Below are positions 14,789 to 43,255 of a stretch of 49,478 bases of DNA, piece after piece (position 1 is the first letter of the stretch; the number at the start of each line of letters is the position of its first letter). The notes below the pieces were generated by a model, which was given only the letters and a program-made list of their open reading frames with translations, was not told where the DNA came from and did not search any database. This DNA comes from Gemmatimonadales bacterium (lineage in GTDB: Bacteria > Gemmatimonadota > Gemmatimonadetes > Gemmatimonadales > GWC2-71-9): assembly GCA_013813435.1 (NCBI GenBank), contig JACCRS010000151.1, positions 1-49,478 of the forward strand. The letters are read 5' to 3'. The translations under genes and the position numbers were made by a program.

Positions 14789-14988
14789 TGCGATCTCCTC
14801 GGTCCCTGACCTGCGGTTGGCGTAGTCGAGCTTCAATAAGTATTAAGAACATACCGGCAGAGCACAACTCGCGCGTTTCTTCTCGTGTGGCGGGAAGTGG
14901 CTCCTAGTCCTTAATTTAGCTTCTGGGTCGTAACATCCTGTCGGGCTTCTCAGGGCCGATTGCCTTAGTGCGATTCGAGTGGTGATGG

Positions 14989-24505: not shown

Positions 24506-25249
24506 TCAGATCCGGCCCATGAGGGATTGAAGACGTAGCCACCAGACCATCCAGATGGCCTCCCGCACGATGCGTTTGTTCATCTTGCTCTGCCCCTCGA
24601 CCCGGTCGGTAAACACGATGGGGATCTCCATCAGGCGGTAGCCCTTCTTCCACGCCCGAAAGCTCATCTCGATCTGGAAGGAGTAGCCGTTGGAGCGCAC
24701 CTTCTCGAAATCGATGGCCTCGAGCACCTCCCGACGAAAGCACTTGAAACCGCCGGTCGAATCCTCCAGCGGCAGTCCGGTAATCCAGCGGGCGTACTGA
24801 TTTGCGCCGATCGAGAGCAAGAGCCGGGAGATTGGCCAATTGATCACGTTCACGCCGGTCCGATAGCGGGAGCCGATGACCAGATCGGCATCGTTGGCCG
24901 CGCGCATGAAGTCGCCCAGAAATTTGGGATCGTGCGAAAAGTCCGCATCCATCTCGAAAATGAGGTCGTACCTACGCTCCAGGGCCCAGCGGAACCCAGC
25001 CAGATACGCCTTTCCCAACCCTGACTTCGCGGGACGGTGCAGCACATGCACGCGTTGCGTCGACGCCGCCAGTTCGTCGGCCAGGTGACCAGTGCCGTCC
25101 GGCGAATTGTCGTCCACCACAAGAACTTCCAGCCGGGGGTCCTGTTGCAGGATAGCGGGCACCACGAGCGGAAGGTTGACCCGCTCGTTGTAGGTGGGCA
25201 CTACCACGAGAAGTCGCTCAGCCACGAGGGCGGCGGAGGTACAGGACAC
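24506..25249 (-). CDS. GT2 polyprenol-phosphate mannosyl/glycosyl-transferase (Ppm1/DPM1-like, soluble)
   Basis: LLVVVPTYNERVNLPLVV...VLVVDDNSPDGTG...FEMDADFSHDP, a GT-A DxD fold. No C-terminal TM helices. It overlaps the preceding YfhO-like gene by 32 nt. Confidence 0.8.
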   Translation of the reverse strand: MSCTSAALVAERLLVVVPTYNERVNLPLVVPAILQQDPRLEVLVVDDNSPDGTGHLADELAASTQRVHVLHRPAKSGLGKAYLAGFRWALERRYDLIFEMDADFSHDPKFLGDFMRAANDADLVIGSRYRTGVNVINWPISRLLLSIGANQYARWITGLPLEDSTGGFKCFRREVLEAIDFEKVRSNGYSFQIEMSFRAWKKGYRLMEIPIVFTDRVEGQSKMNKRIVREAIWMVWWLRLQSLMGRI

Positions 25250-27593
25250 CTCCGAGCAGGGTCACCAGGATGACGGCTCCCCAGGTAAGCAGGGTGAGCG
25301 TGGCCGCAAGACGCACGATCGCGGGACGATACCGCATCACCACCCGATGTTCCCCGCTTCGCGTCAGAGGCACTGCCATGAGAGCGTGGTTAGCCCGAAG
25401 CACGGGCGCTGGAACTCCATCTATCTCCGCCTTCCAGGACGGGTGGTAAGAGCGGCTTACGTGCAGCAGTGCCGGGCCGGTGACGCGTACCCGTACGGCT
25501 AGCGTATCGTCACCGTTGCCTTCGATGGTTGCCGTGCCGGTGCCGCCCGCCTGGCCCAGGGCCAGAACGGGCTCTTCCACAATGGTGACCTTGCCAGGAT
25601 CGAAGGTCGGCGACCAGAGACTCGATATCCTGCGTGCCGAATCGGGCTCCACCTGAACTTCGGGTACGACAGCAACGCCTGGCAGCGCCGCGTCGTTGGC
25701 GTACACCGCCACCCGCTCATCCGAGCCCAATAGACGGAACCCCGGAAGCTCCACCTGCCCCGGCAGGAGAACGTAGCGGGCGGCCAGGGCGCGCAATGCG
25801 GCACTGCTGAGAAACCCAACCCAGTACTGCTCTAGCTCGGTGGTGGTGCGGGCAGACTGCCGAGAGGTGTAACGGGTGAGGTCGTTGTACCAACGCAGTT
25901 GGTTGCCATGATAGCCAAACACCTCGGGAACTCCGTAGCTCGCCAGAAATCCTTCGGGGTAGACGCCACCCACGCTGAGCACACGCTCTCCTGGAACCAG
26001 GCGGGCTCGCAGTGCCTCTATTCCTTGATCCTGAGGGAAGAACTCTTCGTAGCGGACAATCTGAATGTAGCGGTGGTCGACCCGCATCAGGTCCAGCGCG
26101 GTGAGCACCGTGAAGATGATGACGACGTGTGTCGTCCGGAGCGTACCGCGGCCCCAGAGATACACGGCGGCCCAGGCCGCCGCGCAGATCAGTGCCACGA
26201 TCAGGGCACCCGCAGCCAGCCTCGGAACGTTGGCGGCGAACGCAACCGCCCTGTCACCCCCATCGGCACCGCCGAAGATGGAGCTCCAGATCGCATAGAG
26301 GCCTGTGCCGGAGGCCAACGTCAACACCGCGATCAGCAAAGCGGTCCCCGCACCAGTGGCGAGACCGGCTGACATGGCGCGGCGGGCCCGGATATCGCCC
26401 TCGGCCAGGGCTCGCTCAATCAGCAGGGCCGCGAGGAGGGTCAAGGCAACGATGGCCAGATATGTGGCCAAGCTCGGCGCCCGGAAATTCTTGAGGCCAG
26501 GCACGACCGAGTAAAGCAGTCGGAACGCGGGTGTGCCCGAGCCGAGGGCGTACAGCAGTGCCACCGCGGCGAGCGTGGCCAGGCCCCAGCGTCTTCGATC
26601 TCCTTTCAGCCCAGCCAACGCGGCAACGCCCAACACCAGCACCAGCGCGCCCCCGTACTCGGAGTTGTGCTTGAACGGGTTCTTCCCCCAATACGTCTGC
26701 GATTGCACGTCGGTTCCGGAAAACTCAGGGACGAACAGGGATACCGCCTCCTCCGCATGCAGCGACCAGCTGGCCGAGTACTCGAACCCACGTCCTGGGC
26801 CGGCCCGGGGAGAGTCTTCTCGGAGATATCGATACATCGGCAGCAGCACTACCGCTGCAATGCCTGCGGCCGTTACTACAGCGACCATGCCACCGGCGAG
26901 CCCGTGGGCCAGAAAAGCACCTCCCTGGCGTCGTCCATTCCATAGCGTAGCCAGGGCGTAAACCGCCAGCGTGATATAGGCGTAATACGCGAGCTGTGGA
27001 TGAGCCACCACCATCAGCCCCGCAACCACCCCGAGCCAGAGAAACCGCACCCAGGAATGACGTCCCAGCGCTGTCACCAGCAGCCAGAGTGCGGCCGGAA
27101 ACAAGGCGGTGACGTACATCTTGCCGTCCTGCCCGCCCCAAACAAGGCTCACTAGATTGGCGGAGAGCAGATACGCCGAGCCGGCGAAGAGCGCCACCAT
27201 GCGTCTGGTACCGAAAGCGCGAGCGGCGAGGTACATGAATACCCCGGCGAGGTAGACGTGCAGAATCAGCTTCCACGCCAGGGCAGCGGTCAGGGGCAGC
27301 AGGAAGTGCAGTATCGAAGCCGGATAAAGAATGTCGCCGCTGCCGGCTTCGACGGTGGGCACTCCGCCGAAGAGGTACGGATTCCAGAGCGGCAGACGGC
27401 CAAGTGCGCGGATGTGCTCGACGAAGAACTTGCGGAACATGACGCCGGCCGCGATGGTGTCCTGACCCAGGAGCATCGTGCCCTCACCGCTCACGAGGTA
27501 CTCGCGAAACAAGATCAGGGTAAGGGCACCCATTACCACAAACGGAACCCATCGAGGGATCTGGTCCAGCTCGGACGGCTGCGGCTGCTCCAC
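25218..27593 (-). CDS. YfhO-like polytopic membrane protein (GT-C-type glycosyltransferase candidate)
   Basis: 791 aa. The N-terminal two thirds are multi-TM (LWNPYLFGGVPTVEAGSGDILYP near the first loop), followed by a soluble C-terminal domain and a final TM. GTG 27593 directly abuts the upstream TGA. Family call by architecture/motif only. Confidence 0.5.
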   Translation of the reverse strand: MEQPQPSELDQIPRWVPFVVMGALTLILFREYLVSGEGTMLLGQDTIAAGVMFRKFFVEHIRALGRLPLWNPYLFGGVPTVEAGSGDILYPASILHFLLPLTAALAWKLILHVYLAGVFMYLAARAFGTRRMVALFAGSAYLLSANLVSLVWGGQDGKMYVTALFPAALWLLVTALGRHSWVRFLWLGVVAGLMVVAHPQLAYYAYITLAVYALATLWNGRRQGGAFLAHGLAGGMVAVVTAAGIAAVVLLPMYRYLREDSPRAGPGRGFEYSASWSLHAEEAVSLFVPEFSGTDVQSQTYWGKNPFKHNSEYGGALVLVLGVAALAGLKGDRRRWGLATLAAVALLYALGSGTPAFRLLYSVVPGLKNFRAPSLATYLAIVALTLLAALLIERALAEGDIRARRAMSAGLATGAGTALLIAVLTLASGTGLYAIWSSIFGGADGGDRAVAFAANVPRLAAGALIVALICAAAWAAVYLWGRGTLRTTHVVIIFTVLTALDLMRVDHRYIQIVRYEEFFPQDQGIEALRARLVPGERVLSVGGVYPEGFLASYGVPEVFGYHGNQLRWYNDLTRYTSRQSARTTTELEQYWVGFLSSAALRALAARYVLLPGQVELPGFRLLGSDERVAVYANDAALPGVAVVPEVQVEPDSARRISSLWSPTFDPGKVTIVEEPVLALGQAGGTGTATIEGNGDDTLAVRVRVTGPALLHVSRSYHPSWKAEIDGVPAPVLRANHALMAVPLTRSGEHRVVMRYRPAIVRLAATLTLLTWGAVILVTLLGGVLYLRRPRG

Positions 27594-28532
27594 TCAGGCC
27601 TCTCGAACCGAGGGGGGGTTCGGCGCGTCACGCCGAAACAGAAGGGGGATGGCGGGTAGCACTTCGGTTGCGGTGAGCAGGAGCCGGCTTGCGATCGCCA
27701 GCGCGGCTGCTGGTTTGAGTCCTATATCACCGGCAAGCAGAAGGAGAAAGACCGATTCCCTGGGGCCGAGACCGCCCGGCGCGAACAAGGCAAGAAAGCC
27801 TGCGAGGTACGAGCAGGTGAACACTCCCACCGCCTGAGGCAGATTCAGGGCAACACCGGGCAGCAGTCCGCGGGCGAGCAGCAGCAGCGCCAACCCATAC
27901 CCGCACCATGCTATTACATTGGCGACAAACGCTACCGCTACCATGGTGGGAGCGATGGCGCGGAGGGTGGGCCACGAGCTCGGAAGCAGGCGTCCGATGC
28001 GGTCGAGCGCCGGCTGTGAGGTGAGGGTCGCAACGCCGAGAAGGGACAGGACAATAACCACCCCCGCGATGGGCTCGGCCCCCTGCCCCACTGTCTGAAA
28101 GGCGTCGCGCGCGGTCAGGGAGATAACTGCGGCACCGCTTGCGAGGGCCAGTACCTGAAGTACTAACGCGCCTGCCACGGCCACCGCTGGATCGACCCCG
28201 GAACGCTGGGCTAGCACCGCGGCACCGGCGACAGCCCACACTTTTCCCGGCACGTACTTGCCCAGGCTGGCCAGAAACCAGATGCGCGTCGCCGTCATGA
28301 AGGGGAGCGGCTCTCCCATGCTGAGCACCACCCGGCGCCACGCCTCGATCAGCATCGCATAGCTGGCGAAGACCACGAGCACGCTGGCGGCTATCCATTG
28401 GGGCGAGAGTTGCCATTCGATCGGCTGCGCCCGCAGGCTCTGCCAATTGAGGGCCAAAGACCGGACGGCGACCCCCACAAGCAGCGCACCCGCGACGAAC
28501 TGAAAGGCGCGCCAGATTCTACGCTGCACCAT
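27594..28532 (-). CDS. UPF0104 / lysyl-PG-synthase (MprF) transmembrane-domain-type flippase-like protein
   Basis: Polytopic, with the family-typical LGKYVPGKVW and FAPGGLGPRESVFLLLL motifs. ATG 28532 (MVQRRIW) is preferred over 28580. Confidence 0.65.
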   Translation of the reverse strand: MVQRRIWRAFQFVAGALLVGVAVRSLALNWQSLRAQPIEWQLSPQWIAASVLVVFASYAMLIEAWRRVVLSMGEPLPFMTATRIWFLASLGKYVPGKVWAVAGAAVLAQRSGVDPAVAVAGALVLQVLALASGAAVISLTARDAFQTVGQGAEPIAGVVIVLSLLGVATLTSQPALDRIGRLLPSSWPTLRAIAPTMVAVAFVANVIAWCGYGLALLLLARGLLPGVALNLPQAVGVFTCSYLAGFLALFAPGGLGPRESVFLLLLAGDIGLKPAAALAIASRLLLTATEVLPAIPLLFRRDAPNPPSVREA

Positions 28533-29982
28533 TGGACCGATCCCGGTGCGCCTGCGCTGGTACTGCGTTGCCTGATGCATCTTCTATGGCGGAGGGGTGG
28601 TCGCCGGGCAAGGCCGTCAGCAGAACTTGCCCGTCGGCCGTGACTCTCGCGGCCCGCACCGAGCGGCGAAACCGGCGCCATTCGACCACCTTTTTTGCCG
28701 AAGCAAAATATGGCCGGTCGTGCGCCAGCGTCTCCAGCAGGGACACAAAGGCGGGCTCCGCCCCGGGGAATCCCAGCGCCTCTGTAAGGTTAGGATGCCA
28801 CAGGCCCACCCAGGCACCCTCCACCGCCCTGCACTGGCGCGAGAGCTCGATTCCATCCTGCACCCAAAGGGGGGCCTCCTCTATCCCGGCATATTTACTC
28901 AGGGCACGGTCCATCCACACCAGGGGCAGGAGGTCGAGCGGCAGTATGACCTGGCGCGCTGCGTCCCACGCGGGCACCACATCGGCTACCCCCAAGCGGA
29001 AACCGTTTCGATCAGGGAACCCATAGGTGGCATCGTAATCGAAGCCCGCCTCGACCATGGCGCGCTGGGTGGAGCCAGGGCGCATCCGAAGAAAATGCTG
29101 CCGCACACCTTCGATTGGCTTCTCCACCAGGCGGCCGAGCCAGCGGCGTTGAGACGCCATGCGCACAGCATCTCCTCCGGTTTCGAAGCTGCCGTGGAGG
29201 CCGATCTCGTGGCCCGCGCGGGTCACCGCCGAGAGTATCCGGTGAGTCGCGGGCGCATCGGGATGGTAGGTGCAGTCTCCGGACACCATGGATCGGAGCG
29301 AGGGCTGGGCGCATATGACAAACCAGGTGGCGGGGATCCCATGGTGGGCTTCGATCTGAAGCACGCCGTTAACACCTTTGCTGATCGGATCGCGGCCGAT
29401 GCTGCGGCGGGCCGCCCGTGCTACGCGAGCACTGAGCCGCCAAGCTCCCTTCCTTCCGAGCTCCGCCATGCGGAGCAGCGGCAGGAAGCCCCACCACTCC
29501 ACCACATCGAGATCGTGCGTGATTACCACCGCCCACCGGCGGTTGTCGGGCCATGGCACCAACAGTCGCACCGGCCGCCGCCCGGCAACCGCGACCGCCG
29601 CACGGCGCAACTCCGCCGCGAGCACCGAAACCAGCGGTTCGCGGCTCCGGCCCGCCGCTACGAGCGGATTTTCCCCTGCCGGCACCCGGCCATGCCGGTC
29701 GGCGGCCAGGGACCGCTGCTCGACGGCGCCACCCGCAACTTCGGCAACCGCGGCTAACGCAGCGATGGTAATACCTACCTCTCCACTTGCGCGATGAAGC
29801 GCTGCACCCGGCGCCAGATCAGCCACCGGACTGCCGGATGAAGCATGTTCCAGCACGGTGATGCGGACCACGTCGACTTCGGCTTGCTCCGCAACCAGCA
29901 GGCGCGAGAGATCGATCAGAACATCGAGACCGAATCGCTCTGCGGGCTCCAGTCGGTTTCCCGGCACCTCTATCCGGATCAT
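28519..29982 (-). CDS. CE4-like polysaccharide deacetylase family protein with ~150-aa unknown N-terminal region
   Basis: VVITHDLDVV (TxDxD-type motif 1) and HEIGLHGSFE (His-His motif 2). ATG 29982 forms an ATGA overlap with the upstream LbH gene stop. Confidence 0.6.
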   Translation of the reverse strand: MIRIEVPGNRLEPAERFGLDVLIDLSRLLVAEQAEVDVVRITVLEHASSGSPVADLAPGAALHRASGEVGITIAALAAVAEVAGGAVEQRSLAADRHGRVPAGENPLVAAGRSREPLVSVLAAELRRAAVAVAGRRPVRLLVPWPDNRRWAVVITHDLDVVEWWGFLPLLRMAELGRKGAWRLSARVARAARRSIGRDPISKGVNGVLQIEAHHGIPATWFVICAQPSLRSMVSGDCTYHPDAPATHRILSAVTRAGHEIGLHGSFETGGDAVRMASQRRWLGRLVEKPIEGVRQHFLRMRPGSTQRAMVEAGFDYDATYGFPDRNGFRLGVADVVPAWDAARQVILPLDLLPLVWMDRALSKYAGIEEAPLWVQDGIELSRQCRAVEGAWVGLWHPNLTEALGFPGAEPAFVSLLETLAHDRPYFASAKKVVEWRRFRRSVRAARVTADGQVLLTALPGDHPSAIEDASGNAVPAQAHRDRSNGAA

Positions 29983-30443
29983 GGCCACCCCGCATCGGGC
30001 ACGAGCTCACGAACCGTCCGGGCGGGTTGTCCTGCTACGACATGGAGCGAGGGCACGTCGGAAAGCACCACGCTGTTGGCTCCTATCACCGCCCCTCGCC
30101 CGATGCGAACTCCGGGCAGCACCACACAGCCGGAGCCGAGCCACGCGTCATCTTCGATTACGATAGGTCCACGCGAGAGAGGTGCAAAACCGCGGATGCG
30201 AGAGTGGTTCGGGTGGGAGGAGGTTACCAGGGTGACGCGCGGAGCGATGCTTACCCGGTTACCGATGGTGATATTCCCCCGCTCTTCCAGCTCTTCTACG
30301 ATGAGCAGGTCGTCCGCTATGTAGACCTCACGTCCGATCGTGAAGCCACACGACCGGAGCAAGCTTACGCGCCAGGCCGGGAAGAAAGCGTTCCGAGCCC
30401 AGCGCTTCAAGAGTTTCTTTCGAAGGCGCCACGCGAAGCTCAC
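29979..30443 (-). CDS. left-handed beta-helix (hexapeptide-repeat) acyl/acetyltransferase
   Basis: ITIGNRVSIAPRVTLV...IVIEDDAWLGSGCVVLPGVRIGRGAVIGANSVV, hexapeptide repeats as in WcaF/LacA-type O-acetyltransferases. Confidence 0.8.
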   Translation of the reverse strand: MSFAWRLRKKLLKRWARNAFFPAWRVSLLRSCGFTIGREVYIADDLLIVEELEERGNITIGNRVSIAPRVTLVTSSHPNHSRIRGFAPLSRGPIVIEDDAWLGSGCVVLPGVRIGRGAVIGANSVVLSDVPSLHVVAGQPARTVRELVPDAGWP

Positions 30444-30446
30444 GAG

Positions 30447-31490
30447 TTATCCCAGGTAGCGGTAGAGGCCCGAGCCAAGACGCGCGACGCTGGCCGGCAG
30501 GTGGGACCAGAGCGCGGCGGCCGTGGCCATCGGGCCGCGGTTACGCGGAGCGAGGTTCAGACCAGCGGGCGCGGGCCAGTAATCATAGGCCAGCGGTAAG
30601 GCCTGTCCACCCCAGCGCCGCTTGAACTCGACGAGGCCTTCCTGCTCTGGCGCCGCGCGACCCATGTCGAAGCGGCAGCCGGCCGCGATAGCATCCTGGA
30701 TTGCAGCCCATAGCAAGAGGTGGTTTGGCCGATGCTCGAGCTGCGCCGGATCGGAAGCGCCAAAGGCGTAGATCCATGACCGGGCACCTTTCCAGGTGGT
30801 AATGGCGGCCGCTGGAGCCCCGCTGCTCGGGAGCGCGAGATATAAGTCGGCCAGGCCCGCTGCCTGCAGCCGGCGGCACCCCTCGATGAAAAACCGCCGC
30901 GGCGGCGCCGGCAGGCCGTGCCCGTGCGCGGTGCGCTCCTCCAGCTCGGCCATGATGAGCCAATCGCTGGTAGACTCTCCGCGGCGAATTACAAGACCGG
31001 ATTTCCGGCCTTTCTTGATGCTGCGCTGGGTGCTGCCGGCATGCAGCTGCCGCCAGACGAAAGGTTCCCCGCCGTCGGTTGGAATTTCATAGGTTGCATA
31101 ACGAGAGGCGCGCTGAAATTCCGGAGCGGGCGGGTATTCCCCTCTGGATTTAAGCTCGACCCGGGAGACACCGCGCTCTCGGGCCCGGTCCACCACCGCT
31201 TGGGACAGGGCGGCAGCGGTGGCAGCATCGTTAGCCAGTGGACCGGATGCATAGCTGAATGGCAGGCTGACGAACCTTCGGGGTCCAATCAGCGGCGGGA
31301 TTTCGGCTACCGCGAGGATACCGCACAGTCCGCCGCCTGTGGTCGCCGAGTAGTAATCGAGCCGGAGCCGGTAAATGTCGGCCAGGCATTGGGCCCATTC
31401 CGGGCGATGATAGAACGTGCCATGCGCTACGGCAAAGGCACGCCAGTCCTCCGGCGGTTCAACGCCGCGGCTTATGGTCAGCGACGGCAT
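30447..31490 (-). CDS. FemAB-like tandem-GNAT acyl/aminoacyl-transferase
   Basis: 347 aa. FYHRPEWAQCL near the N-terminus and LVEFKRRWGG near the C-terminus (FemAB-family FKxxFG-like motif). Confidence 0.6.
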   Translation of the reverse strand: MPSLTISRGVEPPEDWRAFAVAHGTFYHRPEWAQCLADIYRLRLDYYSATTGGGLCGILAVAEIPPLIGPRRFVSLPFSYASGPLANDAATAAALSQAVVDRARERGVSRVELKSRGEYPPAPEFQRASRYATYEIPTDGGEPFVWRQLHAGSTQRSIKKGRKSGLVIRRGESTSDWLIMAELEERTAHGHGLPAPPRRFFIEGCRRLQAAGLADLYLALPSSGAPAAAITTWKGARSWIYAFGASDPAQLEHRPNHLLLWAAIQDAIAAGCRFDMGRAAPEQEGLVEFKRRWGGQALPLAYDYWPAPAGLNLAPRNRGPMATAAALWSHLPASVARLGSGLYRYLG

Positions 31491-32667
31491 CGTACACTTC
31501 CAGGAAGCTGGCTATGGCGGCATCGGGGGAATAGGTGCGGAGGGCATGCTCCCGCCCTTCCAGCGCCAGCCGTTCGCGGAGAGAAACGTCGGTGAGCAGA
31601 CGCTGGATCTGGTCTGCGAGGTCATCCGGATCGCCGTCTCGGGCAATGAGTCCGGTTCGCTCATGGATCACGACCTCTGGTATGCCGCCCGCGGCGGTTC
31701 CCACGACCGCCGCGCCCGCCAGAATAGCCTCCACCAGGGTCAGGCCGAGCCCTTCGGCGTTACCGCGGCTGGGCAAGACGGTGACCATACTCGCGCCGTA
31801 TTCCGCGGCCATTCGAGGCTGGGAAACGAACGGCGCCCAGGTGACACGGCTGGAGATACCGAGCGAACGCGCCAGGACTTCGAGCTTCGATCTGAGCGGA
31901 CCCTCGCCCAGGATCTTGAGCTCGCAGGCTACGCCTCTGCGCCCGAGCTCCGCCGTCGCTCTGAGCAGTACATCCACTCCCTTGCTCGGCACCAGGTTGC
32001 CGGCGTAGAGGATGCGAGGCGGTTGCTGCTTTGGTGTTCGGGCACCCTGACTGAACGCCGCAACGTCCAATGGCATCGGCATTACCTGGATCTCGGTACC
32101 GAGGGCGGGTAGCAGCCTGCGAAGGTCGTCCGCCAGAAATTTCGAGACCGTAGTAATTCGAGCTGCGCGCCGGAATGCGGGCAGGGCAATCCTTCGCATG
32201 AGACTCGACCGCTCCAGCAAGCGGACGTCCGAGCCGTGACAGGTTATAAGGTACGGTGCCGGCTCACGACTGACGAACCATCCCGCCGGCAGCCACCAGT
32301 GGGCATGAACCACGTCAGGCGCGAACCGGAGCGTCGCGGTGTGGACCGCGCGAGCGAAGGCCAGGAGAAAACCCGGGAAGGCGAGCGCGGCCAAGGGAGA
32401 GCGTAATGTCCTACCGTGGAGGTTGCCGGTATATGCAACCCGCTCAAGCGCTTCAGGACCGTACCGGAAGCGGCGGATCCGAAGTCCCGCAACCTGCTCT
32501 TCCCCAGCAGTACCCGGCGCATGGGGCGCGATGACCTCGAGCTGATGTCCCCGGGCTGCCGCGCCCTGTGCCAGCCGGGCCACGAAGGCGCCGGCAGGGT
32601 CGCCGGAAAAGCGGGGGTAGTTGTGGGTAACCGTCAGGATACGGAGGCGCTTACCTGGCGAGGGCAT
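31459..32667 (-). CDS. glycosyltransferase family 4 (GT-B)
   Basis: RILTVTHNYPRFSGDPAGAFV N-terminus, and a C-terminal EGLGLTLVEAILAGAAVVGTAAGGIPEVV (E-x7-E region). ATG 32667 preferred. Confidence 0.8.
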   Translation of the reverse strand: MPSPGKRLRILTVTHNYPRFSGDPAGAFVARLAQGAAARGHQLEVIAPHAPGTAGEEQVAGLRIRRFRYGPEALERVAYTGNLHGRTLRSPLAALAFPGFLLAFARAVHTATLRFAPDVVHAHWWLPAGWFVSREPAPYLITCHGSDVRLLERSSLMRRIALPAFRRAARITTVSKFLADDLRRLLPALGTEIQVMPMPLDVAAFSQGARTPKQQPPRILYAGNLVPSKGVDVLLRATAELGRRGVACELKILGEGPLRSKLEVLARSLGISSRVTWAPFVSQPRMAAEYGASMVTVLPSRGNAEGLGLTLVEAILAGAAVVGTAAGGIPEVVIHERTGLIARDGDPDDLADQIQRLLTDVSLRERLALEGREHALRTYSPDAAIASFLEVYDAVADHKPRR

Positions 32668-33787
32668 TTCGATACCATCCCTCGCACAGCCCGGCGACAT
32701 GGTCCGGTGCCAGGCGTGCGCGCCAGGACTCGCCGACGAGGCGCCCCATGGCCAGACGATCGGGGTCGCCCTGGAGGTCCAGCACGCTGTCAGCCAGTGC
32801 CTCGGGCGATGGCAGGGTAAGCCGGCCCGGGCCTGACTCCGGCACGATACTCACCGCGGCGCCGCTGTCCCAGCTTGCCACTACCGGCACGCCACAGGCT
32901 AGCGCCTCTATGGTGGCAAGTGCTACACCATCTTCCCGGGCGGTAAAGAGCATGACATCGGCGCGCTCGAGATATGTTCGCGCCTCCGCTCCTGAGGTGG
33001 CCCCCACAAATCGAACCAGCGATGAGATCCCCAGGCGCGACGCACGCTGCTCCAGAGCTCCACGCTCGGGTCCATCTCCGACGATGGTGAGGGGAAAGCC
33101 GTGGCCGCTGGAAGCGAGTAGTGCCACCGTATCGAGCGCCAGATCGACCCGCTTCGATGGTGCCAGCCGGGAGATGACTACCGCACCGCCGCCACCTCGG
33201 GTCCAGGGATACCCGCGGGTGTCGGCCGGCATCGGGTGAATGTACGGAGTGTCCACGAAGCGGCCCACCGCAGCCTGAACCCAGTTGCCCACCTCCCTCG
33301 AAACCGCAGTGACGATAGACGCCCGCTGGAGCAGGGGACGTGCGAGCGATCGGGCAACGCGTGACCGTTGAAGCAGGGAGCCGTCGGCTCCGTAAACCGT
33401 TACCACCAAGGGAACGCCGGAGGGAGCTGCCAGTCCGGCCGGCAGCCAGGAGTGCGCGTGCAGAACGTCGGCGCCGGCCGCGATCTCATCTCGGAGCACC
33501 GCCCTCATCGCACGCCGGAGCCGGCGGAGCGCCAGCCACCCGACGGGACTTCTCAGGGCTGCGGCAACTTTATGATCGCTCGAGAGCCGGTCGCGAACCG
33601 ATCTGCCGACGCGAACTCTTGCAACCGGAACTCCGTCCACCTCGATCTCGCCGCCCTCACCGCTCGGAGTAACAACGCGAACCGAGATCCCGCGGCGTTT
33701 GAGGGCTGACGCAAGCGTGCTGAGCGGGGCGCCGGAGAGATCGCCAGGCCTGCGGAGGTAATCGTGGGTCAGGAGGACGACCCGCAC
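32651..33787 (-). CDS. glycosyltransferase family 4 (GT-B), paralogue of the next gene
   Basis: VRVVLLTHDYLRRPGDLSGAP N-terminus, DGVALATIEALACGVPVVASWDSGA C-terminal motif. Confidence 0.8.
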   Translation of the reverse strand: MRVVLLTHDYLRRPGDLSGAPLSTLASALKRRGISVRVVTPSGEGGEIEVDGVPVARVRVGRSVRDRLSSDHKVAAALRSPVGWLALRRLRRAMRAVLRDEIAAGADVLHAHSWLPAGLAAPSGVPLVVTVYGADGSLLQRSRVARSLARPLLQRASIVTAVSREVGNWVQAAVGRFVDTPYIHPMPADTRGYPWTRGGGGAVVISRLAPSKRVDLALDTVALLASSGHGFPLTIVGDGPERGALEQRASRLGISSLVRFVGATSGAEARTYLERADVMLFTAREDGVALATIEALACGVPVVASWDSGAAVSIVPESGPGRLTLPSPEALADSVLDLQGDPDRLAMGRLVGESWRARLAPDHVAGLCEGWYRNALAR

Positions 33788-33790
33788 CGG

Positions 33791-34747
33791 TCAATCCCGG
33801 ACGTCGGGCTTCTCGAGCCGCGCGAGACCTCGGCCGATCTCCCGGGTTTCCTCGCGCATTCCGGCGATTATCTCACCCAGAAAGCCGAATCCGAAGAGGA
33901 CTATGCCGCTGATAACCATCATCTCAACGAGATTGAGGAGCGGCCGGAGACCAATACCGTAGGCAAAGCGGAGGACCAGCGCAGCGATCCCGGCCAGAAA
34001 GCCGATGACGAAGACGATGGCGCCACCGACCCCGAAGAAAAGCATCGGCTTCCGCCCGAACCGCAGCTGGAACCAGACCGATATCAGGTCAAAGAGTCCA
34101 ACGGGTATCCGCCTCCAGTTGAACTTGGAGATTCCCGCCCTGCGGGGGTAGAGCGGAACCGGCAGCGAGGTGAGCCGGTAACCGTCGGCGGCGGCTATGA
34201 CCACCATGTAGCGATGCCAATCGGGCCGGAGCGGCACGCCCAGCATTACCTCGCGCCGGTAGGCCTTGACTGAATTAAGATCGGTTACCCGGACCCCAAA
34301 GAGCCATCGACAAAGGCTGTTGTAGATCCGGGAGACGAAAGCCTTCTCGTATCTGCCCTGTTTGGTTCCGGTGACGATATCGGCACGGCCGTCCAGAATC
34401 GGCGCCACCAGGCCGGGGATGTCCTCGGGCAGGTACTGCAGATCAGCCGGATAGAAGACAAAGACGTCGCCCCTAGCAACTTCACCCGCGGATCTGAGGC
34501 TATCCGCGATTCCACGCTGCCGGCGATGATTGATTACTCGGAGAAAAGAGTATCGCAGCTCCAGCTCCCGAAGCACCCCATCGCTGCCGTCGCGAGAGCC
34601 ATCGTTGACGATGATCACCTCGAATGAGAAGCCAGCGGGCGCAAGCGCCGCCTCGCAGCGCTGCAAGAGCTCGGGAAGGTTTGCCGCCTCGTCCTTAGCC
34701 GGGACGAGCACGCTCACATCCAGCGTCTCGACCGGAACGATGGTCAT
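33791..34747 (-). CDS. GT2 polyprenyl-phosphate glycosyltransferase (ArnC/GtrB-like, two C-terminal TM helices)
   Basis: VSVLVPAKDEAANL...EVIIVNDGSRDGS...FYPADLQY, a GT-A core followed by two hydrophobic helices (MLFFGVGGAIVFVIGFLAGIAALVL; MMVISGIVLFGFGFLGEIIAG). The ATG overlaps the rpoN TGA (ATGA). Confidence 0.75.
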   Translation of the reverse strand: MTIVPVETLDVSVLVPAKDEAANLPELLQRCEAALAPAGFSFEVIIVNDGSRDGSDGVLRELELRYSFLRVINHRRQRGIADSLRSAGEVARGDVFVFYPADLQYLPEDIPGLVAPILDGRADIVTGTKQGRYEKAFVSRIYNSLCRWLFGVRVTDLNSVKAYRREVMLGVPLRPDWHRYMVVIAAADGYRLTSLPVPLYPRRAGISKFNWRRIPVGLFDLISVWFQLRFGRKPMLFFGVGGAIVFVIGFLAGIAALVLRFAYGIGLRPLLNLVEMMVISGIVLFGFGFLGEIIAGMREETREIGRGLARLEKPDVRD

Positions 34748-36285
34748 ACCCGCTTCCGCATGCGCGCCGGAAGGATGCCCAGCTGATCGCGGTACTTGGC
34801 GACCGTACGGCGGGCGATCTGGATTCCCTGCTCCTGAAAGAGATGAACAATCTGCTGGTCGGTGAGCGGCTTGGCGCTGTTCTCCTCGCCCACCATTTTC
34901 TCCAGCTTGGCGCGGATGGAGCGGGCGCTCGCATCTTCCCCCGATGCGGTGGAGAGCGCGCTGGAAAAGAAGAACTTGAGCGGGAGAACACCGCGAGGGG
35001 TCTGCACGAACTTCTCGTTCGTCACCCGGCTCACGGTGGACTCATGCATGTTGATGACCTCCGCGACTTCGCGGAGGGTAAGAGGCTTTAGATACTCGAT
35101 GCCCTTTTCAAAGAAGTCGCGTTGCCGATCGACGATGAAATTCATGACCTTGAGCATGGTCTGGCGGCGCTGCTCGATGGCCTGGATCATCCAGTTGGCG
35201 CTGTTCATCTTCGAGGCGATGAACTCGCGGTTCTCGGGCGTCATCTTTTTCTTGTCGCGCGCGATCTCCTGATAGGAACGGCTCAACCGCAGCCGAGGCA
35301 TGCCTGTGTCGTTGAGAAATACATGATAGCGAGTCCCGATCTTATCAACGATGAGATCCGGAATGATGTAGCCATCGCTCTGCTGCGAATACTTGAGACC
35401 GGGCTTGGGGTCAAGCCGGGAGAGCTGATCGGCTGCGGTCTGTACCGCGCCAGGTTCGACCCCGAACCGCTTGGCAAGGTCGTTCCATCGATGGGCGATC
35501 AGATCGGGAAATGCCTCGGCTACGAGGCGATAGGTTAGAGACGAGGTGTCCGCCAGCTCCACCAGCTGAATCAGGAGGCACTCGCGCAAGTCCCGGGCAC
35601 CAGTGCCCGAGGGATCCAGGCGCTGGATGACCGTGAGCATCTCCTCGGCTTCCTGAAGGGTGTAAAAGGGGGGAGAGGACGAAGAGGACGGAGCAGATGC
35701 GTTGGCTGAGCCGCCGGCTGCCGACGGGATCTCGAAAGTCTCAAGCCCTCCATCTTCTCCGCCATCTCCGTCTTCTCCGCTAACTCTTACGTGCCCCGAG
35801 AGGAGCAGATTCACCGAGTTGAGAATGTCCTCGAGCGGCGCCGCGAGGTATCCCTCCTCGTTGACATTGCCCAGGAACTCCTCGGCGAGCAGCAGTTGGC
35901 GCGGCGTTAAGACGAGCATCTGGAGCTGGTCCCGCAGATGATCGATGAGGTTGCGGGACTCGACCGTGACGGGCTCGGTGTACTCCAGCTGCTCGTATTG
36001 CTCCCGAGTGCCGCCCACCTCGAAGCCGTTAAGAAGTATCTCCTCCCAGTCCACCTCGTCCTGCTTGTCTTTCTGCTCCTTCTCCTCTTTAGCGGTTGCC
36101 GGTTCCGGCTGCGCCTCCTCTTCCGGCTCCAACAGCTCGAGGAACGGATTGGCCAGCAGTTCCTGCTTCAGGTGTTGCTGGAGGTCCATCATAGGCATGT
36201 ACAGCATGTCCATGGCCTGATAGAGCCGGGGATTGACCCTCAGCTCCTGGCGCATGCTGGTATGCTGTGACAGGCCGGTTCTCAT
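34744..36285 (-). CDS. rpoN: RNA polymerase sigma-54 factor
   Basis: N-terminal Gln/Leu-rich region I, acidic region II, C-terminal HTH and RpoN box ARRTVAKYR. Confidence 0.9.
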
Positions 36286-37442
36286 GCAGCCGCCTCGAGT
36301 CGGGCGCGGAGACGCGCCGTGAGCGTCGGCCCCAGGTAAAGCTGGGCAACCCGGTCGTCGTAGACCAGATCACGCACGGTGCCTGCGGCCTGAACTTTTC
36401 CTTCGAAGATGATGTAGGCCCGATCTACGATGTCGAGAGTCTGCTCCACGTTGTGATCCGTAATCAGCACGCCGATGCCACGATGCCTCAAGCCGGCGAC
36501 GATGGTTTGGATGTCGTGCACAGCGATCGGATCGACGCCGGCAAATGGCTCGTCCAGCAACATGAACTTGGGGTCCGACACCAGGGCCCGGGTTATCTCG
36601 AGCCGCCGCCGCTCGCCGCCACTCAGGGTATATGCCTTGCTTTTGCGGAGATGCTTGATCGAGAGCTCGTCCAGCATGCGGTCCAGACGGCTATAGCGTT
36701 CGTCCCGGCTCAGCCCCCGCGTCTCCAGAATGGCTAAAATGTTCTCCTCGACTGTCATCTTGCGGAAGACCGAGGGCTCCTGGGCCAGGTAGCCGATGCC
36801 ATTTCGGGCCCGTTGGTACATCGGCGCGTCGGTAAGCTCAACTCCATCCAGCCGCACGCGGCCCTGGTCGGGGCGGATAAGTCCCGTAATAAGGTAGAAG
36901 GTCGTTGTCTTTCCCGCGCCATTTGGTCCCAAAAGGCCGACGATCTCACCTTGCTCCACCCGCACAGTCACGTCGTCTACCACCCGCCGACCCTTGAAGC
37001 TCTTGCTCAGGTCGAGTCCTTCCAGCAGGCTGGTCTGGGCGCCATTTCTGGGATAGGTCTTGGCCCGCCGCACGGCACGCCGGGCCGAGCCGAGCAACGC
37101 CTCGTAAACCGTTTGCCGCTCTTCCACCGTTGGGCCCCACCACGCCACCCGCGGCCGCACCGTCTGCCAGTAGCCTGCGCTGGTATCGAGAATCCAACCC
37201 TCGGTTGCCAGCCGTGGCAGCACGGAACCATTCAGGTGGTGCCGCACCTCATCGCCGGAGACTTCCTGGTCCGCATCTCCGGTGGGCTGGTAGCAGGCCA
37301 GGTAAGCCTCGCGGTAGCTGTGCACCAGGTCGGCGAACGCGATGGTTTCAGTCGGGCCCACGGCCTGGACAATCGCTGCCAGTCCAATCGGCACCGAGGG
37401 ATCGCGATCGCCGAGCGCGGCGACCCACTCTGGCGCGGTCAT
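36282..37442 (-). CDS. lptB: LPS export ABC transporter ATP-binding protein LptB with a ~135-aa N-terminal extension of unknown function
   Basis: Walker [10 protein letters not shown] at residues 172-180 (residues 36-44 in E. coli LptB), [11 protein letters not shown] signature, [11 protein letters not shown] Walker B, C-terminal LYLGPT. The ATG overlaps the lptA-like stop (ATGA). Confidence 0.8.
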
Positions 37443-38869
37443 CCGCCTTCGTCCGTTCCCGGCAGCGAATCGGCTTGCGTCGCGCTCGAGTCCGGCCGGG
37501 CCGGGGCGTCCGCCGCTTCCAGCTGGATACCATCCACCTGGCCCCGGATGTCCACCCGGTCGACGCCACCCTGCCCGGCCGGGCTCATCGTCATGACGAT
37601 AACGTCACCCCGGGCGTAGTTAATTGACGGCCTATCCGGATGCCTGGCATTTGCCTCGATGTGGTACGACTGGGCCCCCTTCCGCGCCACGATGCGGCTC
37701 AGGGCGGCACGGGCGGTGCCCGCCGAATCCCGCTGGACGAAGCTGGCGACCACGCTATCTCCTCGAATCCAGTCGCGTTGCTTGCTGGCCGCCTCGACGG
37801 TGCCTCCCAGCCAGGCGGCGCCGAAACCGCGCACCTCCTTGAGTCGCTGGGCCGGGGTATCGAGCGCCAAGGAATCGGCACGCATGGCGTAGGCCGGCGA
37901 GGTTGCATAGGGGCGGATAGAATCGCCCCAGGCCAGCGTCTGCTCCAGCTTTCTGTTGTTCAAATCGAGTCCGATCGTGTCAGCCACCAGGTCCCACTCT
38001 CTACTCACCGCGTGGCCGTTGCCCCTGGCGAGCACGTACGTGAGCTCCCGCTGGTCGAGCTTCAGATCGAGCCGTCGGCCAGACAGGTTAAAGCTGTCAC
38101 GGCCCAAGCCGCGCATCACGGGATTCCCGCCGATGAGGGTGCCATCGCTTCCCTTGCCGGTGTCCAGCCGGAGCGAGTCTCCCTTGGCGGCAAAATCGCT
38201 GCGGTCGATCGTGACCTTGCCGCCACCCCATAGCCGGTCGTTGCCCTTAAGCCGAACCCGGTCGGCGACGATGATGTACGGCTCACCCGGCCTGGCACCG
38301 GGAGCCGCAGCTGTGTACTCAATGCGGGGGCGTCCGGTCGAAAACATCTCCAGCGTGTCCCGGACACCCTTCACCACCCGGAAATAGTCGAGCGCGGGCC
38401 CGGTAAGGGTCGAGCCGTTCCTGATGTTTCTGGTGGTGACGCGTCCGCGGGCCTCCCACTTCTCGCCCTTCTTGTAGTAGGTGCCCCGGTCGGCATCCAT
38501 TGTGAGGGTGGAGTCGCGGTATTTCACATTACCTATGAACTGGACAACATCGCCGCCATAGGCCGCCACGCTGTCACTCTGCATGGTGAGTTGCTGGCCC
38601 CGGCAGCTGAGCCGAACGTTGCCCCCGGCGAAATAGTTGGTGCCGGCGGGTGTCTCGTTCACGCTGCCCTGACGATCGACGTTGTCAATCTGGAAAACGC
38701 ACCGATCGGACTGGCCGTGCGCAGCCGCTACCTGCGTCATGAGAGCGAGGAGGGCCAGTCCGAGCGGGTAAGCGGGTAAGCGGGTAAGTGGGTAAGCAAG
38801 GGCACGCCGCAGCGCCCTGGTCCACCGAGAGCGTACCCGCGTACCCGCGTACCCGCTTACCCGCCTCAT
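37439..38869 (-). CDS. elongated LptA/OstA-family periplasmic protein (476 aa)
   Basis: Signal-peptide core [17 protein letters not shown]. Repeated OstA-like beta-jellyroll segments ([34 protein letters not shown]). Positioned between lptC and lptB. Confidence 0.65.
38764..38864. repeat. inverted tandem-octamer repeat (long hairpin) at the lptC/lptA junction
   Basis: Plus strand: (GCGGGTAA)x3-GTGGGTAA-GC at 38764-38797 and GC-(GTACCCGC)x3-TTACCCGC at 38831-38864. The arms are reverse complements apart from about one position per unit. The 33-nt spacer contains AGGGC..GCCCT. Confidence 0.85.
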
Positions 38870-39405: not shown

Positions 39406-39481
39406 TTGCACAACGGGACGCGGGACCTCCGCGCCCTCGGGCTCCAGCAGCGGGCGCCCCACCTCGATCACTGCCGAAAAG

Positions 39482-40838: not shown

Positions 40839-40839
<1 letters not shown>
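40039..40839 (-). CDS. kdsA: 3-deoxy-8-phosphooctulonate synthase
   Basis: FLIAGPCVIE, KASFDKANRSS-like KASFDKANRSR, QIPAFLCRQTDL, THSVQ motifs. ATG 40839 shares 1 nt with the pyrG TGA. Confidence 0.9.

Positions 40840-43255
<2,416 letters not shown>

Follow-up and report, generated by a model that had tools for sequence, protein, structure and literature searches.

A conserved envelope glycan operon of Gemmatimonadota with genes for a Fem-like tandem GNAT protein, a CE4-fold protein and a stand-alone UPF0104 protein

Introduction

The Wbp/Vim pathway of Porphyromonas gingivalis and Tannerella forsythia includes the deacetylase VimE, the aminoacyl transferase VimA and the glycosyltransferase VimF (PMC7468200). 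For VimE, a protein of carbohydrate esterase family 4 (CE4), the proposed reaction is the release of the 2-N-acetyl group from di-N-acetyl-glucuronic acid, and VimA is similar to the family TIGR03019 (PMC7468200, PMC13086638). A swap of VimA between species switches the amino acid from Ser to Gly, and the "linking sugar" anchors type IX secretion system (T9SS) cargo to anionic lipopolysaccharide (A-LPS) (PMC7468200, PMC13086638). Here we analyze an operon with a comparable set of genes from a bacterium of the order Gemmatimonadales (assembly GCA_013813435.1, contig JACCRS010000151.1); the whole stretch of 49,478 nucleotides (nt) that was analyzed is called the window. The center of the operon consists of four genes, which code for a protein with two GNAT (Gcn5-related N-acetyltransferase) domains of the Fem type, an acyltransferase with a left-handed beta-helix (LbH), a protein with the CE4 fold and a membrane protein of the UPF0104 family.

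In Clostridioides difficile and Pseudomonas aeruginosa the systems HexSDF (PMC10128005) and GpgSDF (PMC12713373), each with a synthase, a deacetylase and an MprF-like flippase, generate an aminohexosyl glycolipid and glucosaminyl-phosphatidylglycerol (GlcN-PG), respectively. Both trios are established genetically, while the flippase step itself is unproven (PMC10128005, PMC12713373). GpgS is a family 4 glycosyltransferase (GT4) and GpgF is a COG0392/UPF0104 protein (PMC12713373). A different scheme is found in the Arn, Gtr and CsbB/GtcA/YfhO systems, which combine a polyprenyl-phosphate glycosyltransferase of family 2 (GT2), a small flippase and a glycosyltransferase with the GT-C fold (PMC7389260, PMC8035078, PMC11127046, PMC12690121). 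A Fem-like enzyme that acts on an amino sugar is also known: Orf11 moves Gly from Gly-tRNA to the amine of the amino-sugar-containing streptothrisamine (PMC12945691), and the peptide synthases Sba18 and Sbb17, which likewise depend on aminoacyl-tRNA, were crystallised with streptothrisamine bound (PMC12945691; PDB 9wqy, 9wqw, 9wqx). A search of the literature on polar lipids of Gemmatimonas found nothing relevant.

A preliminary description of the four genes regarded the UPF0104 protein and the GNAT protein as the two halves of MprF, encoded separately on either side of a deacetylase and an LbH acyltransferase. We find that the four genes are the middle of a nine-gene cell-envelope glycan operon and no self-contained unit. 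The interpretation that we prefer, with a probability of roughly 45%, is that a Vim/PEP-CTERM-type module for an aminoacylated amino sugar and a lipid-carrier module of the Arn/CsbB-YfhO type act on one envelope glycoconjugate.

Results

Organization of the operon

In the order of transcription the nine genes, all on the minus strand, encode a GT2 enzyme (GT2a), two GT4 enzymes (GT4a and GT4b), the Fem-like protein, the LbH protein, the CE4-fold protein, the UPF0104 protein, a YfhO-like membrane protein and a second GT2 enzyme (GT2b). They are tightly packed. Every junction from lptB, which lies further upstream, to GT2b is either an overlap of ≤50 nt or a gap of ≤3 nt (-50 to +3 nt); the start of GT2a overlaps the stop of rpoN by 4 nt, the genes for the CE4 and UPF0104 proteins overlap by 14 nt and those for the YfhO-like protein and GT2b by 32 nt. 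The four genes of the preliminary description (27594-31490, minus strand) are confirmed as open reading frames (ORFs) at the stated coordinates and are joined by overlaps or gaps of ≤3 nt. Consensus scans of the operon for terminator signals found none exceeding shuffled controls; the corresponding promoter scans gave a few promoter-like matches, of which none marks an operon boundary, and no promoter signal above shuffled controls. The nine genes appear to be co-transcribed, downstream of kdsB-pyrG-kdsA-kdsC-lptC-(476-aa ORF)-lptB-rpoN and with dapF as the next gene. According to hydropathy analysis all soluble enzymes of the operon are without a signal peptide or transmembrane segment. The modifying enzymes are therefore expected in the cytoplasm, so that an order in which a sugar is modified first and flipped afterwards makes sense topologically.

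The Fem-like protein

The only Pfam family found in the tandem GNAT protein (30447..31490, minus strand) is PF13480 (E 7e-13). Its best full-length family model is TIGR03019 (pepcterm_femAB in NCBIfam; E 6.6e-31, 108 bits, cut-off 260), the FemAB family of PEP-CTERM/exosortase loci. The FemX equivalog model NF047883, in contrast, gave no match at E≤0.01. An AlphaFold2 model calculated with 46 orthologues (predicted local distance difference test score, pLDDT, 79.6; predicted TM score, pTM, 0.77) shows a pair of GNAT lobes and, in addition, conserved helices at the C-terminus. In a Foldseek search of the PDB with this model ranks 1 to 11 are taken by Fem or Fem-like enzymes throughout: FemX of Weissella (FemX_Wv; E 3e-12, TM 0.52-0.60), FemX of Staphylococcus aureus (FemX_Sa; 8e-11) and FemA (1.5e-9) are among them, and the TM scores of Fem and Sba18/Sbb17 structures range from 0.52 to 0.61. 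When the score is normalised to the length of the target (TMt), Sba18/Sbb17 are best (0.67-0.70), at a sequence identity of 17-19%. Other tandem GNATs rank after the Fem group and still ahead of the MprF synthase domains, which appear only from rank 15 (E 5e-7 to 6e-6, TM 0.38-0.47). The dual-GNAT fold foreseen in the preliminary description is thus borne out by structure prediction, with FemX, Sba18/Sbb17 and FemA as nearest neighbours.

Single-sequence searches of the PDB with the Fem, CE4, UPF0104 and YfhO-like proteins gave nothing useful, and profiles were required. A profile of 50 diverse members of the Fem family found FemX_Sa (2.3e-26), FemX_Wv (2.6e-23), Sbb17/Sba18 (1e-11) and FemA (3e-4) in the PDB sequences; none of the MprF chains was matched. 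The alignment places the profile motif "LleFKr" on "LYVFKH" of FemX_Wv, which ends at residue 306, and hence Lys290 of the window protein on Lys305. In FemX_Wv this residue, part of a Phe304-Lys305 motif, is catalytic (PMC12945691). The pair Phe289-Lys290 is invariant in the family, and Lys290 is kept in 50/50 diverse members. By these comparisons the GNAT protein is to be classified as a Fem/VimA-type enzyme and not as an MprF synthase domain of the PF09924/DUF2156 type, and the view that it is one half of MprF is not supported: its lineage is that of PF13480/TIGR03019, and its profile retrieves FemX. The donor is most likely an aminoacyl-tRNA.

The family is large. Among 1.8 billion representative proteins we found 4696 relatives at E≤1e-3 and only 55 at E≤1e-30; because of this drop the Gemmatimonadota proteins are judged to be a distinct clade within it. 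Orthologues of the Fem and CE4 proteins with 65-99% identity make up hundreds of protein clusters, and all organism names attached to them are Gemmatimonadales.

Since the partners of the Fem-like protein are GT4, LbH and CE4 proteins, a glycan is favoured over peptidoglycan as its acceptor. A role in peptidoglycan synthesis, in which the Fem-like protein would add a branch amino acid to the precursor and the CE4 protein would be a PgdA-like deacetylase of N-acetylglucosamine (GlcNAc), is suggested by the Fem superfamily itself, by dapF immediately downstream, by a murJ gene elsewhere in the window and by the label "serine/alanine adding enzyme" that the Joint Genome Institute (JGI) gives to some homologues. 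We consider it very improbable. The protein is far nearer to TIGR03019 than to the FemX equivalog, PgdA-type deacetylases are extracytoplasmic whereas the CE4 protein of the window is without signal peptide or transmembrane segment, and the invariant GT4 and LbH partners are typical of glycan loci. Moreover, interpeptide bridges are, to our knowledge, no feature of the peptidoglycan of Gram-negative bacteria with diaminopimelic acid.

The CE4-fold protein

The CE4 protein (28519..29988, minus strand; 489 aa) has no match in Pfam, including PF01522, to which the HexD type belongs, and DUF2334. Its sole match in NCBIfam is the VimE deacetylase model NF053580 (E 1.5e-20, 73 bits vs. a cut-off of 440). 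This alignment is nearly full length, with residues 96-402 on profile positions 110-410 of 431. Neither in Pfam nor in NCBIfam did the protein match models of the GpgD type (COG3233/DUF2334) or the HexD type (PF01522). The AlphaFold2 model (pLDDT 81, pTM 0.87) resembles in Foldseek the structures 3rxz (E 2.4e-11, TMt 0.65) and 3s6o; ArnD (8t0j; E 2.6e-7, TMt 0.61) is within the top 5, and chitin and peptidoglycan deacetylases are also among the matches. The term "CE4-like", which the preliminary description had used, is thus valid by predicted fold and not by Pfam. About 140 N-terminal and about 50 C-terminal residues lie beyond the CE4 core. The motifs "THDLD" and "GHEIGLHG" align with "TFDVD" and "GHEIAHHG" of 3rxz, which are CE4 motifs 1 and 2, and the invariant residues of the protein are H158-D159-x-D161, H215, E261, H265 and W397-H398.

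The LbH acetyltransferase and the GT4 enzymes

The gene between those for the Fem-like and CE4 proteins (29979..30443, minus strand) codes for a hexapeptide protein (Hexapep, E 7e-15), so that both middle genes of the preliminary description, the putative de-N-acetylase and the LbH acyltransferase, were correctly recognised. The best NCBIfam models are LacA (E 1.4e-23) and WcaF (1.7e-22); the protein belongs to this subfamily of acetyltransferases, and its nearest relatives are O-acetyltransferases.

GT4b (31459..32700, minus strand; Glycos_transf_1, E 1e-34) has BshA, MshA and PimA-type GT4 enzymes as nearest solved relatives (E 4e-19), and in every contig that reaches far enough upstream its gene immediately precedes the Fem gene. 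GT4a (32651..33787, minus strand), a retaining-type GT4 enzyme of the GT-B fold with the domains Glycos_transf_1 and Glyco_transf_4, is accessory: it is present only in the closest clade of the window and absent from loci with Fem proteins of about 50% identity. Both GT4 enzymes weakly match the model NF053787 for GlcNAc-phosphatidylglycerol synthase (E 2e-13 and 6e-9). These matches, at 50 vs. 480 bits, are weaker than those to EpsE, BshA and MshA.

The window also contains, at 530-2242 on the plus strand, a homologue of the bacillithiol cysteine-adding enzyme BshC (PF10079, E 1.5e-66), which implies, as judged from this homology, that bacillithiol is made by this member of the Gemmatimonadales. 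A bacillithiol role for GT4b was considered and rejected. GT4b reaches 104 bits with the BshA model against a cut-off of 274, a distance of 28 kb separates it from the bshC gene, which is on the opposite strand, and the operon's deacetylase is of the CE4 type and not of the LmbE type.

Conservation of gene order

A scan of 185,579 species genomes with an alignment of close Fem proteins gave 49 loci, numbered with the prefix L, onto which the window proteins were mapped. Most of them (39) are from Gemmatimonadota. In these 39 loci the order GT4b-Fem-LbH-CE4 is intact wherever the contig allows it to be seen: the LbH gene directly follows the Fem gene in 38/38 loci with a contig continuing beyond Fem, and the CE4 gene is in place in 33/33. 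This recurrence far exceeds chance. Among the loci with orthologous blocks are three from metagenome-assembled genomes of Gemmatimonas (L025, L026 and L036).

The UPF0104 gene follows a different rule. It is found in 28 Gemmatimonadota loci, and in 28/28 its neighbour is GT2a or YfhO. About 21 loci have the window-like order CE4-UPF0104-YfhO, the only arrangement in which UPF0104 adjoins the CE4 gene. In five Gemmatimonadaceae loci, rpoN-GT2a-UPF0104-YfhO-GT2b-dapF is a separate operon convergent with the Fem block, and two further loci have the order rpoN-GT2a-UPF0104-GT4b-Fem-LbH-CE4. In another two (L024 and L037) the CE4 gene is directly followed by YfhO with no UPF0104 gene between; L024 is covered on both sides and the gene is absent, while the contig of L037 begins inside the Fem gene, so that a copy further upstream is possible. 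GT4-Fem-LbH-CE4 is therefore one module and GT2a/UPF0104/YfhO/GT2b another.

The two modules stay within about 12 kb of each other through at least four different arrangements. The preliminary description had predicted that the four genes co-occur in other genomes. They do occur together across Gemmatimonadota; the unit that does not vary, on the other hand, is GT4-Fem-LbH-CE4, and UPF0104 goes with GT2a and YfhO.

Relatives of the Fem protein outside Gemmatimonadota (24-34% identity) have no UPF0104 gene within 10 kb in the loci examined. The nearest outgroup is a single Zixibacteria genome, in which Fem-LbH (LbH 55% identical) stands beside a GT4 gene and an orthologue of GT2a (40% identity, E 4e-64); a DegT aminotransferase and a polytopic membrane protein of 725 aa are encoded next to them as well. 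The membrane protein was considered as a counterpart of the YfhO-like protein and discarded, as the two have no similarity. A 323-aa ORF upstream of the Fem gene in this genome has CE4-like motifs by eye, and a comparison with hhalign (22% probability, E 1e-3) is suggestive only. Because the modules remain together through several rearrangements, and because GT2a accompanies Fem-LbH in a second phylum, they probably cooperate.

In Armatimonadota the order is exosortase-Fem-LbH-GT4-GT4 (LbH 47% identical), and in Zhuqueibacterota a PF01522/TIGR03006-like deacetylase precedes Fem, which is followed by an ATP-grasp enzyme. Both arrangements fit a PEP-CTERM-type module.

Other contexts of Fem relatives were also seen. 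In two Terriglobales loci (L044, 8995-12068; L048, 8991-12070) the Fem gene lies between a class IV aminotransferase gene and a phosphopantetheine-carrier/thioesterase gene, a context that looks like natural-product or lipopeptide synthesis and not like glycan synthesis. A Rokubacteria locus (L043) has two Fem-like paralogues (7272-8360 and 11659-12822), which are 3.3 kb apart; directly after the first there is a 481-aa ORF, similar in size to the CE4 protein of the window, with no match in Pfam or NCBIfam.

The UPF0104 protein

The membrane protein encoded at 27594..28532 (minus strand) matches PF03706 (LPG_synthase_TM) with 37.6 bits, above the gathering cut-off of 33.4 (E 2.3e-9), over 271 residues and nearly its whole length; 10/11 Gemmatimonadota orthologues do so as well (best E 4.5e-12). 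The assignment to UPF0104 in the preliminary description was hence right. The longest ORF reaches to 28580, and the orthologue in L012 starts at the equivalent of the ATG at 28532, which supports the latter start. The protein has about eight hydrophobic segments (hydropathy) and is without a match in NCBIfam; the motifs "LGKYVPGKVW" and "APGGLG(V/P)RE" are conserved in the orthologues. A profile of 11 orthologues had no match at all in the PDB sequences and found no MprF chain even at E 10. From these searches the protein is classified as a distant member of PF03706, with Pfam as the single source for its kinship to MprF.

Stand-alone UPF0104 proteins are almost universal, are paired with many enzymes and in many cases occur as fusions with GT-A or GT-B domains; the sole member with demonstrated lipid translocation is the domain of MprF itself (preprint 10.1101/2022.03.11.483950). 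Given this ubiquity, a separate copy is no sign of a split MprF. Nor do the UPF0104 and Fem genes behave like a pair, since two genes lie between them in the window, they belong to different operons in the five Gemmatimonadaceae loci and UPF0104 is absent in L024.

The gene order of the window also calls to mind a cationic lipid made in the manner of HexSDF and GpgSDF with the addition of a Fem enzyme. GT4b, with or without GT4a, would place an N-acetyl-hexosamine (HexNAc) on a membrane lipid, for example phosphatidylglycerol (PG) or glycosyl-diacylglycerol. The CE4 protein would de-N-acetylate it in the manner of HexD and GpgD, the Fem-like protein would aminoacylate the amine, the LbH protein would acetylate and UPF0104 would flip the product, a role that has been proposed for HexF and GpgF; GT2a, YfhO and GT2b would form a separate system that is merely adjacent. 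This is the strongest form of the idea in the preliminary description. The order GT4-GT4-Fem-LbH-CE4-UPF0104 and the overlap of the last two genes mirror hexSDF and gpgSDF (PMC10128005, PMC12713373), GpgS and GpgF are themselves GT4 and COG0392/UPF0104 proteins (PMC12713373), and the weak NF053787 matches of both GT4 enzymes and the cytoplasmic nature of the modifying enzymes point in the same direction. Furthermore, canonical MprF also makes lysine-modified lipids other than lysyl-PG (PMC13370385). However, the NF053787 matches (50 vs. 480 bits) reflect generic GT4 similarity, the CE4 protein matches neither GpgD-type nor HexD-type models (no DUF2334, no PF01522) and UPF0104 has no NCBIfam match, so that orthology to GpgS, GpgD, GpgF or the HexD type is not supported. 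In addition, UPF0104 is part of the separate convergent operon in the five Gemmatimonadaceae loci and is absent from L024 and from all Fem loci examined beyond the phylum. We regard this interpretation as rather unlikely.

GT2a, the YfhO-like protein and GT2b

GT2a (33791..34747, minus strand; PF00535, E 6.7e-22) is a polyprenyl-phosphate glycosyltransferase of the ArnC/GtrB/DPMS type, DPMS being dolichyl-phosphate mannose synthase. It aligns end to end with ArnC in the PDB (9bhc; E 1.4e-24, query residues 10-302 on 9-303), less closely with GtrB (5e-19) and DPMS (2e-17), and matches the ArnC model of NCBIfam with E 4e-25. Two C-terminal hydrophobic segments (hydropathy) are present as in the ArnC/GtrB class. 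In the GT2a orthologue of the Zixibacteria genome (L051, 12769-14526, minus strand) the C-terminus is extended by a tail of some 260 residues with an extreme content of Arg, Asp, Glu and Pro (RRDDRRDERRDERPQERRD...), which is missing from GT2a of Gemmatimonadales.

The YfhO-like protein (25218..27593, minus strand; 791 aa; PF09586 and DUF6541) has about 13 hydrophobic segments, a loop domain of 280 residues, presumed to be a large periplasmic domain, and a C-terminal transmembrane segment (hydropathy). It matches PgfM1/PgfM2 weakly in NCBIfam and has no match in the PDB sequences; from its family matches it is presumed to be a GT-C glycosyltransferase. GT2b (24506..25249, minus strand; PF00535, E 3.8e-31) is soluble and of the Dpm1/PpgS/AglJ type, with E 1e-12 to 1e-14 for the AglJ, PpgS and dolichyl-phosphate-hexose transferase models of NCBIfam. 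By family it is a candidate for a second polyprenyl-phosphate sugar synthase. In L001, which is on the same contig as L012, the YfhO-like protein and GT2b are fused to a single protein of 1027 aa with GT2b at the C-terminus (12390-15473). This fusion ties a polyprenyl-phosphate sugar synthase to the presumed GT-C enzyme. Pfam and NCBIfam revealed no GtrA/GtcA-type or ArnE/F-type flippase among the operon proteins, and the only candidate is UPF0104, which is of a different family.

These similarities raise the possibility of a linear route after the model of Arn. GT2a would make undecaprenyl-phosphate-HexNAc, the CE4 protein (in the place of ArnD) would de-N-acetylate the sugar on its lipid, the Fem-like and the LbH proteins would then aminoacylate and acetylate it, UPF0104 would flip it and YfhO would transfer the sugar to lipid A, to the lipopolysaccharide (LPS) core or to another periplasmic acceptor, with the GT4 enzymes building the acceptor. 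Such a route would use every gene. ArnC is the best match of GT2a anywhere, ArnD is one of the five structures nearest to the CE4 model, the operon comes directly after Kdo (3-deoxy-D-manno-oct-2-ulosonic acid) and Lpt genes, and a GT2a orthologue is present with Fem-LbH in Zixibacteria. Yet the soluble CE4 enzymes of the 3rxz/3s6o type match better than ArnD, and VimE, the sole family-level match of the CE4 protein, is a deacetylase of UDP-sugars. A linear pathway would also not need as many as two GT2 synthases and two GT4 enzymes, and in Gemmatimonadaceae the CE4/Fem block is transcribed apart from GT2a-UPF0104-YfhO. Finally, we know of no Fem enzyme that acts on a polyprenyl-monophosphate sugar. 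The linear route is in our opinion unlikely.

Other genes in the window

The window has a G+C content of about 63%, and from 24506 to 43255 it is one unbroken string of minus-strand genes. According to Pfam this string begins with genes for a KdsB-type cytidylyltransferase, CTP synthase, a KdsA-type synthase, a KdsC-like phosphatase of the haloacid dehalogenase (HAD) superfamily and LptC. They are followed by a 476-aa ORF without Pfam match, an ATP-binding cassette (ABC) ATPase in the LptB position and sigma-54 (rpoN); after the nine genes of the operon comes DapF. The 476-aa ORF (37439-38869, minus strand) lies between lptC and lptB, where lptA is expected; in L001 two genes (215 and 223 aa) are located at this position, likewise without Pfam match. 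The ATPase in the LptB position (36282-37442, minus strand) has about 150 extra residues ahead of the ABC domain, which starts at residue 156/386. Close relatives retain the extra residues (the protein of L001 has 386 aa), and the distant L024 matches residues 133-383 only.

Elsewhere, a sulfotransferase gene (PF13469) is followed by one for a protein of 816 aa that resembles galactose oxidase/glyoxal oxidase and contains Big_1 and Kelch domains (10167-13743, plus strand). At the edge of the window (47847-49288, minus strand) a tyrosine recombinase of the phage-integrase family adjoins a PD-(D/E)XK nuclease-family protein. The longest ORF for GpsA (glycerol-3-phosphate dehydrogenase; 17452-19197, plus strand) has about 250 N-terminal residues without a domain match and shares some sequence with the end of the EngA/Der GTPase gene; translation probably begins downstream of 17452.

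Discussion

The interpretation that we favour assigns distinct tasks to the two modules. Module 1 (GT4a, GT4b, Fem, LbH, CE4) would operate in the cytoplasm: a GT4 enzyme would install a sugar, probably an N-acetyl-hexosamine, the VimE-like CE4 protein would take off its N-acetyl group, the Fem-type transferase would aminoacylate the resulting amine, with aminoacyl-tRNA as the most likely donor, and the LbH enzyme would contribute an acetyl group. The analysis shows families and predicted folds, the catalytic Lys that is conserved, topology, gene packing and synteny; from these we infer both the sequence of the steps and the donor, and the sugar could be carried on UDP, on polyprenyl phosphate or on a glycolipid. 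In Module 2 (GT2a, UPF0104, YfhO-like, GT2b) a sugar would be loaded onto polyprenyl phosphate at the cytoplasmic face, flipped and passed to a periplasmic acceptor. UPF0104 would here replace ArnEF, GtrA or GtcA as flippase, with this sugar as its putative cargo, and YfhO would perform the periplasmic transfer. Both modules probably decorate the same envelope glycoconjugate. Because of the neighbouring genes, LPS or another outer-membrane glycolipid is the leading candidate for the final acceptor.

Several points weigh against this scheme. The scores of the CE4 protein with the VimE model (73 vs. 440 bits) and of the Fem-like protein with TIGR03019 (108 vs. 260) are far below the equivalog cut-offs, and orthology to the Vim proteins is not established. 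In the CE4 protein the second metal-binding His of the classical motif 2 is seemingly replaced ("HGSFE"), so that catalytic details may differ. In the Vim pathway the enzymes WbpA/B/E/D supply UDP-2,3-diacetamido-glucuronate. No dehydrogenase, oxidoreductase or aminotransferase of the Wbp type (WbpA/B/E) was found among the window ORFs scanned; such genes may lie elsewhere in the genome. The PF09586 match of the YfhO-like protein (43.6 bits) is above the cut-off and yet covers only the C-terminal 66 residues, and DUF6541 reaches 32 bits. As the modules were compared mainly within one phylum, common descent of the gene order might explain part of their conserved closeness. In the lineage of the window, furthermore, the UPF0104 gene follows the CE4 gene with the 14-nt overlap, an arrangement that fits a HexSDF/GpgSDF-like role in Module 1 equally well.

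The preliminary description is partly supported by these results. Its chemistry, in which an amino sugar is de-N-acetylated and then aminoacylated, has precedents in VimE and VimA (PMC7468200), and the trio of glycosyltransferase, deacetylase and flippase in HexSDF and GpgSDF (PMC10128005, PMC12713373); by analogy with these the flipping idea is reasonable too. The glycolipid that had been proposed as acceptor is no more likely than a nucleotide sugar or an undecaprenyl-phosphate sugar. A strategy like that of MprF but built from separate parts is doubtful in our view; in it the Fem-like protein would use aminoacyl-tRNA to aminoacylate the de-N-acetylated amine of a lipid-linked hexosamine, be it a glycolipid or an undecaprenyl-phosphate sugar, UPF0104 would flip it and YfhO could pass it on to LPS. 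If true, it would amount to a previously undescribed N-aminoacyl-aminosugar decoration of the outer envelope. In a variant, the aminoacyl sugar would be the Gemmatimonadota counterpart of the T9SS "linking sugar" of P. gingivalis. Gemmatimonadetes have been named as possible carriers of a T9SS (PMC11285876), and this variant, if true, would mean that the Vim pathway and the anchoring of cargo by a sortase-type mechanism are not confined to Bacteroidota.

The operon alone reveals no new principle. Fem-type enzymes with aminoacyl-tRNA as donor are, however, barely characterised beyond peptidoglycan; even for VimA the donor and the exact acceptor are still inferred. We know of no reaction assigned to the TIGR03019 family of exosortase loci. 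The operon unites the questions about Fem and UPF0104 proteins in a tightly coupled unit, which is conserved across a phylum and located beside LPS transport genes. Culturable members such as Gemmatimonas offer a genetic handle for asking whether the VimE-to-VimA chemistry is general, whether UPF0104 proteins flip polyprenyl-phosphate sugars or glycolipids and what role YfhO-type GT-C enzymes have in diderms.

How does the operon compare with the described systems? With MprF it shares the PF03706 membrane domain and a tandem GNAT that probably uses aminoacyl-tRNA, and MprF moves an amino acid to an envelope molecule, as the GNAT of the window would. In contrast to MprF, the GNAT of the window is of PF13480 and not of PF09924/DUF2156, the two proteins are unfused and form no conserved pair, and the amino acid is expected in amide linkage with a sugar amine and not as an ester on the glycerol of PG. 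The streptothricin-type pathways of Orf11, Sba18 and Sbb17 have the same double GNAT with a conserved F-K motif, but these enzymes serve a natural-product pathway and not the envelope. The PEP-CTERM/exosortase loci for exopolysaccharides are related through TIGR03019 as the best family of the Fem-like protein, and relatives of this protein, accompanied by LbH and GT4 genes, adjoin an exosortase in L046 and, in L042, a deacetylase similar to TIGR03006, the polysaccharide deacetylase family of the XrtA system. Here the differences are that the window locus sits in the kds-lpt-rpoN string and that its TIGR03019 score is below the cut-off; no exosortase, Wzx/Wzy or chain-length determinant is among the window ORFs scanned.

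In the operon, as in hexSDF and gpgSDF, a glycosyltransferase gene (GpgS is a GT4 enzyme) is combined with genes for a de-N-acetylase and for an unfused UPF0104 protein; in the window these genes are co-directional and overlapping. This is a match at the level of architecture only. The operon may follow the same logic, in which an N-acetyl-hexosaminyl lipid is made, deacetylated to a cationic amine and flipped. Unlike them it has Fem and LbH acyltransferases between the S and D genes, so that the amine would be re-acylated and not free; the deacetylase is from a different CE4 subfamily, and in sister lineages the counterpart of the F gene goes with GT2a and YfhO. The likeness to Arn, GtrB-GtrA-GtrX and CsbB-GtcA-YfhO consists in a GT2 enzyme with two C-terminal transmembrane segments, a small flippase-like protein and a large YfhO-like polytopic protein; as in Arn there is a CE4-fold enzyme, with ArnD as structural neighbour, and the operon adjoins LPS genes. 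These systems differ from the operon in that the flippase candidate of the latter is a UPF0104 protein and not of the GtrA or small multidrug resistance (SMR) type, and in that it has two GT2 synthases and an added Fem/LbH/GT4 block. YfhO systems have been characterised in Gram-positive bacteria and not in diderms.

The Wbp/Vim pathway resembles the operon, through matches far below the equivalog cut-offs, in that a CE4-type de-N-acetylase adjoins a TIGR03019-like Fem-type protein and a glycosyltransferase; VimF is a member of family GT4. The proposed chemistry is the same, in that the N-acetyl group of an amino sugar is removed and Ser or Gly is then placed on the amine, and the Vim organisms and that of the window all belong to the FCB (Fibrobacterota-Chlorobiota-Bacteroidota) superphylum. 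Unlike the Vim operon as described, the window adds an ArnC-like GT2 enzyme, UPF0104 and YfhO to the module, and in loci of its type an LbH gene is always located between Fem and CE4. Each part of the operon thus has a described analogue; what is new is their combination, their place behind Kdo, Lpt and RpoN genes and their conservation across a poorly studied phylum.

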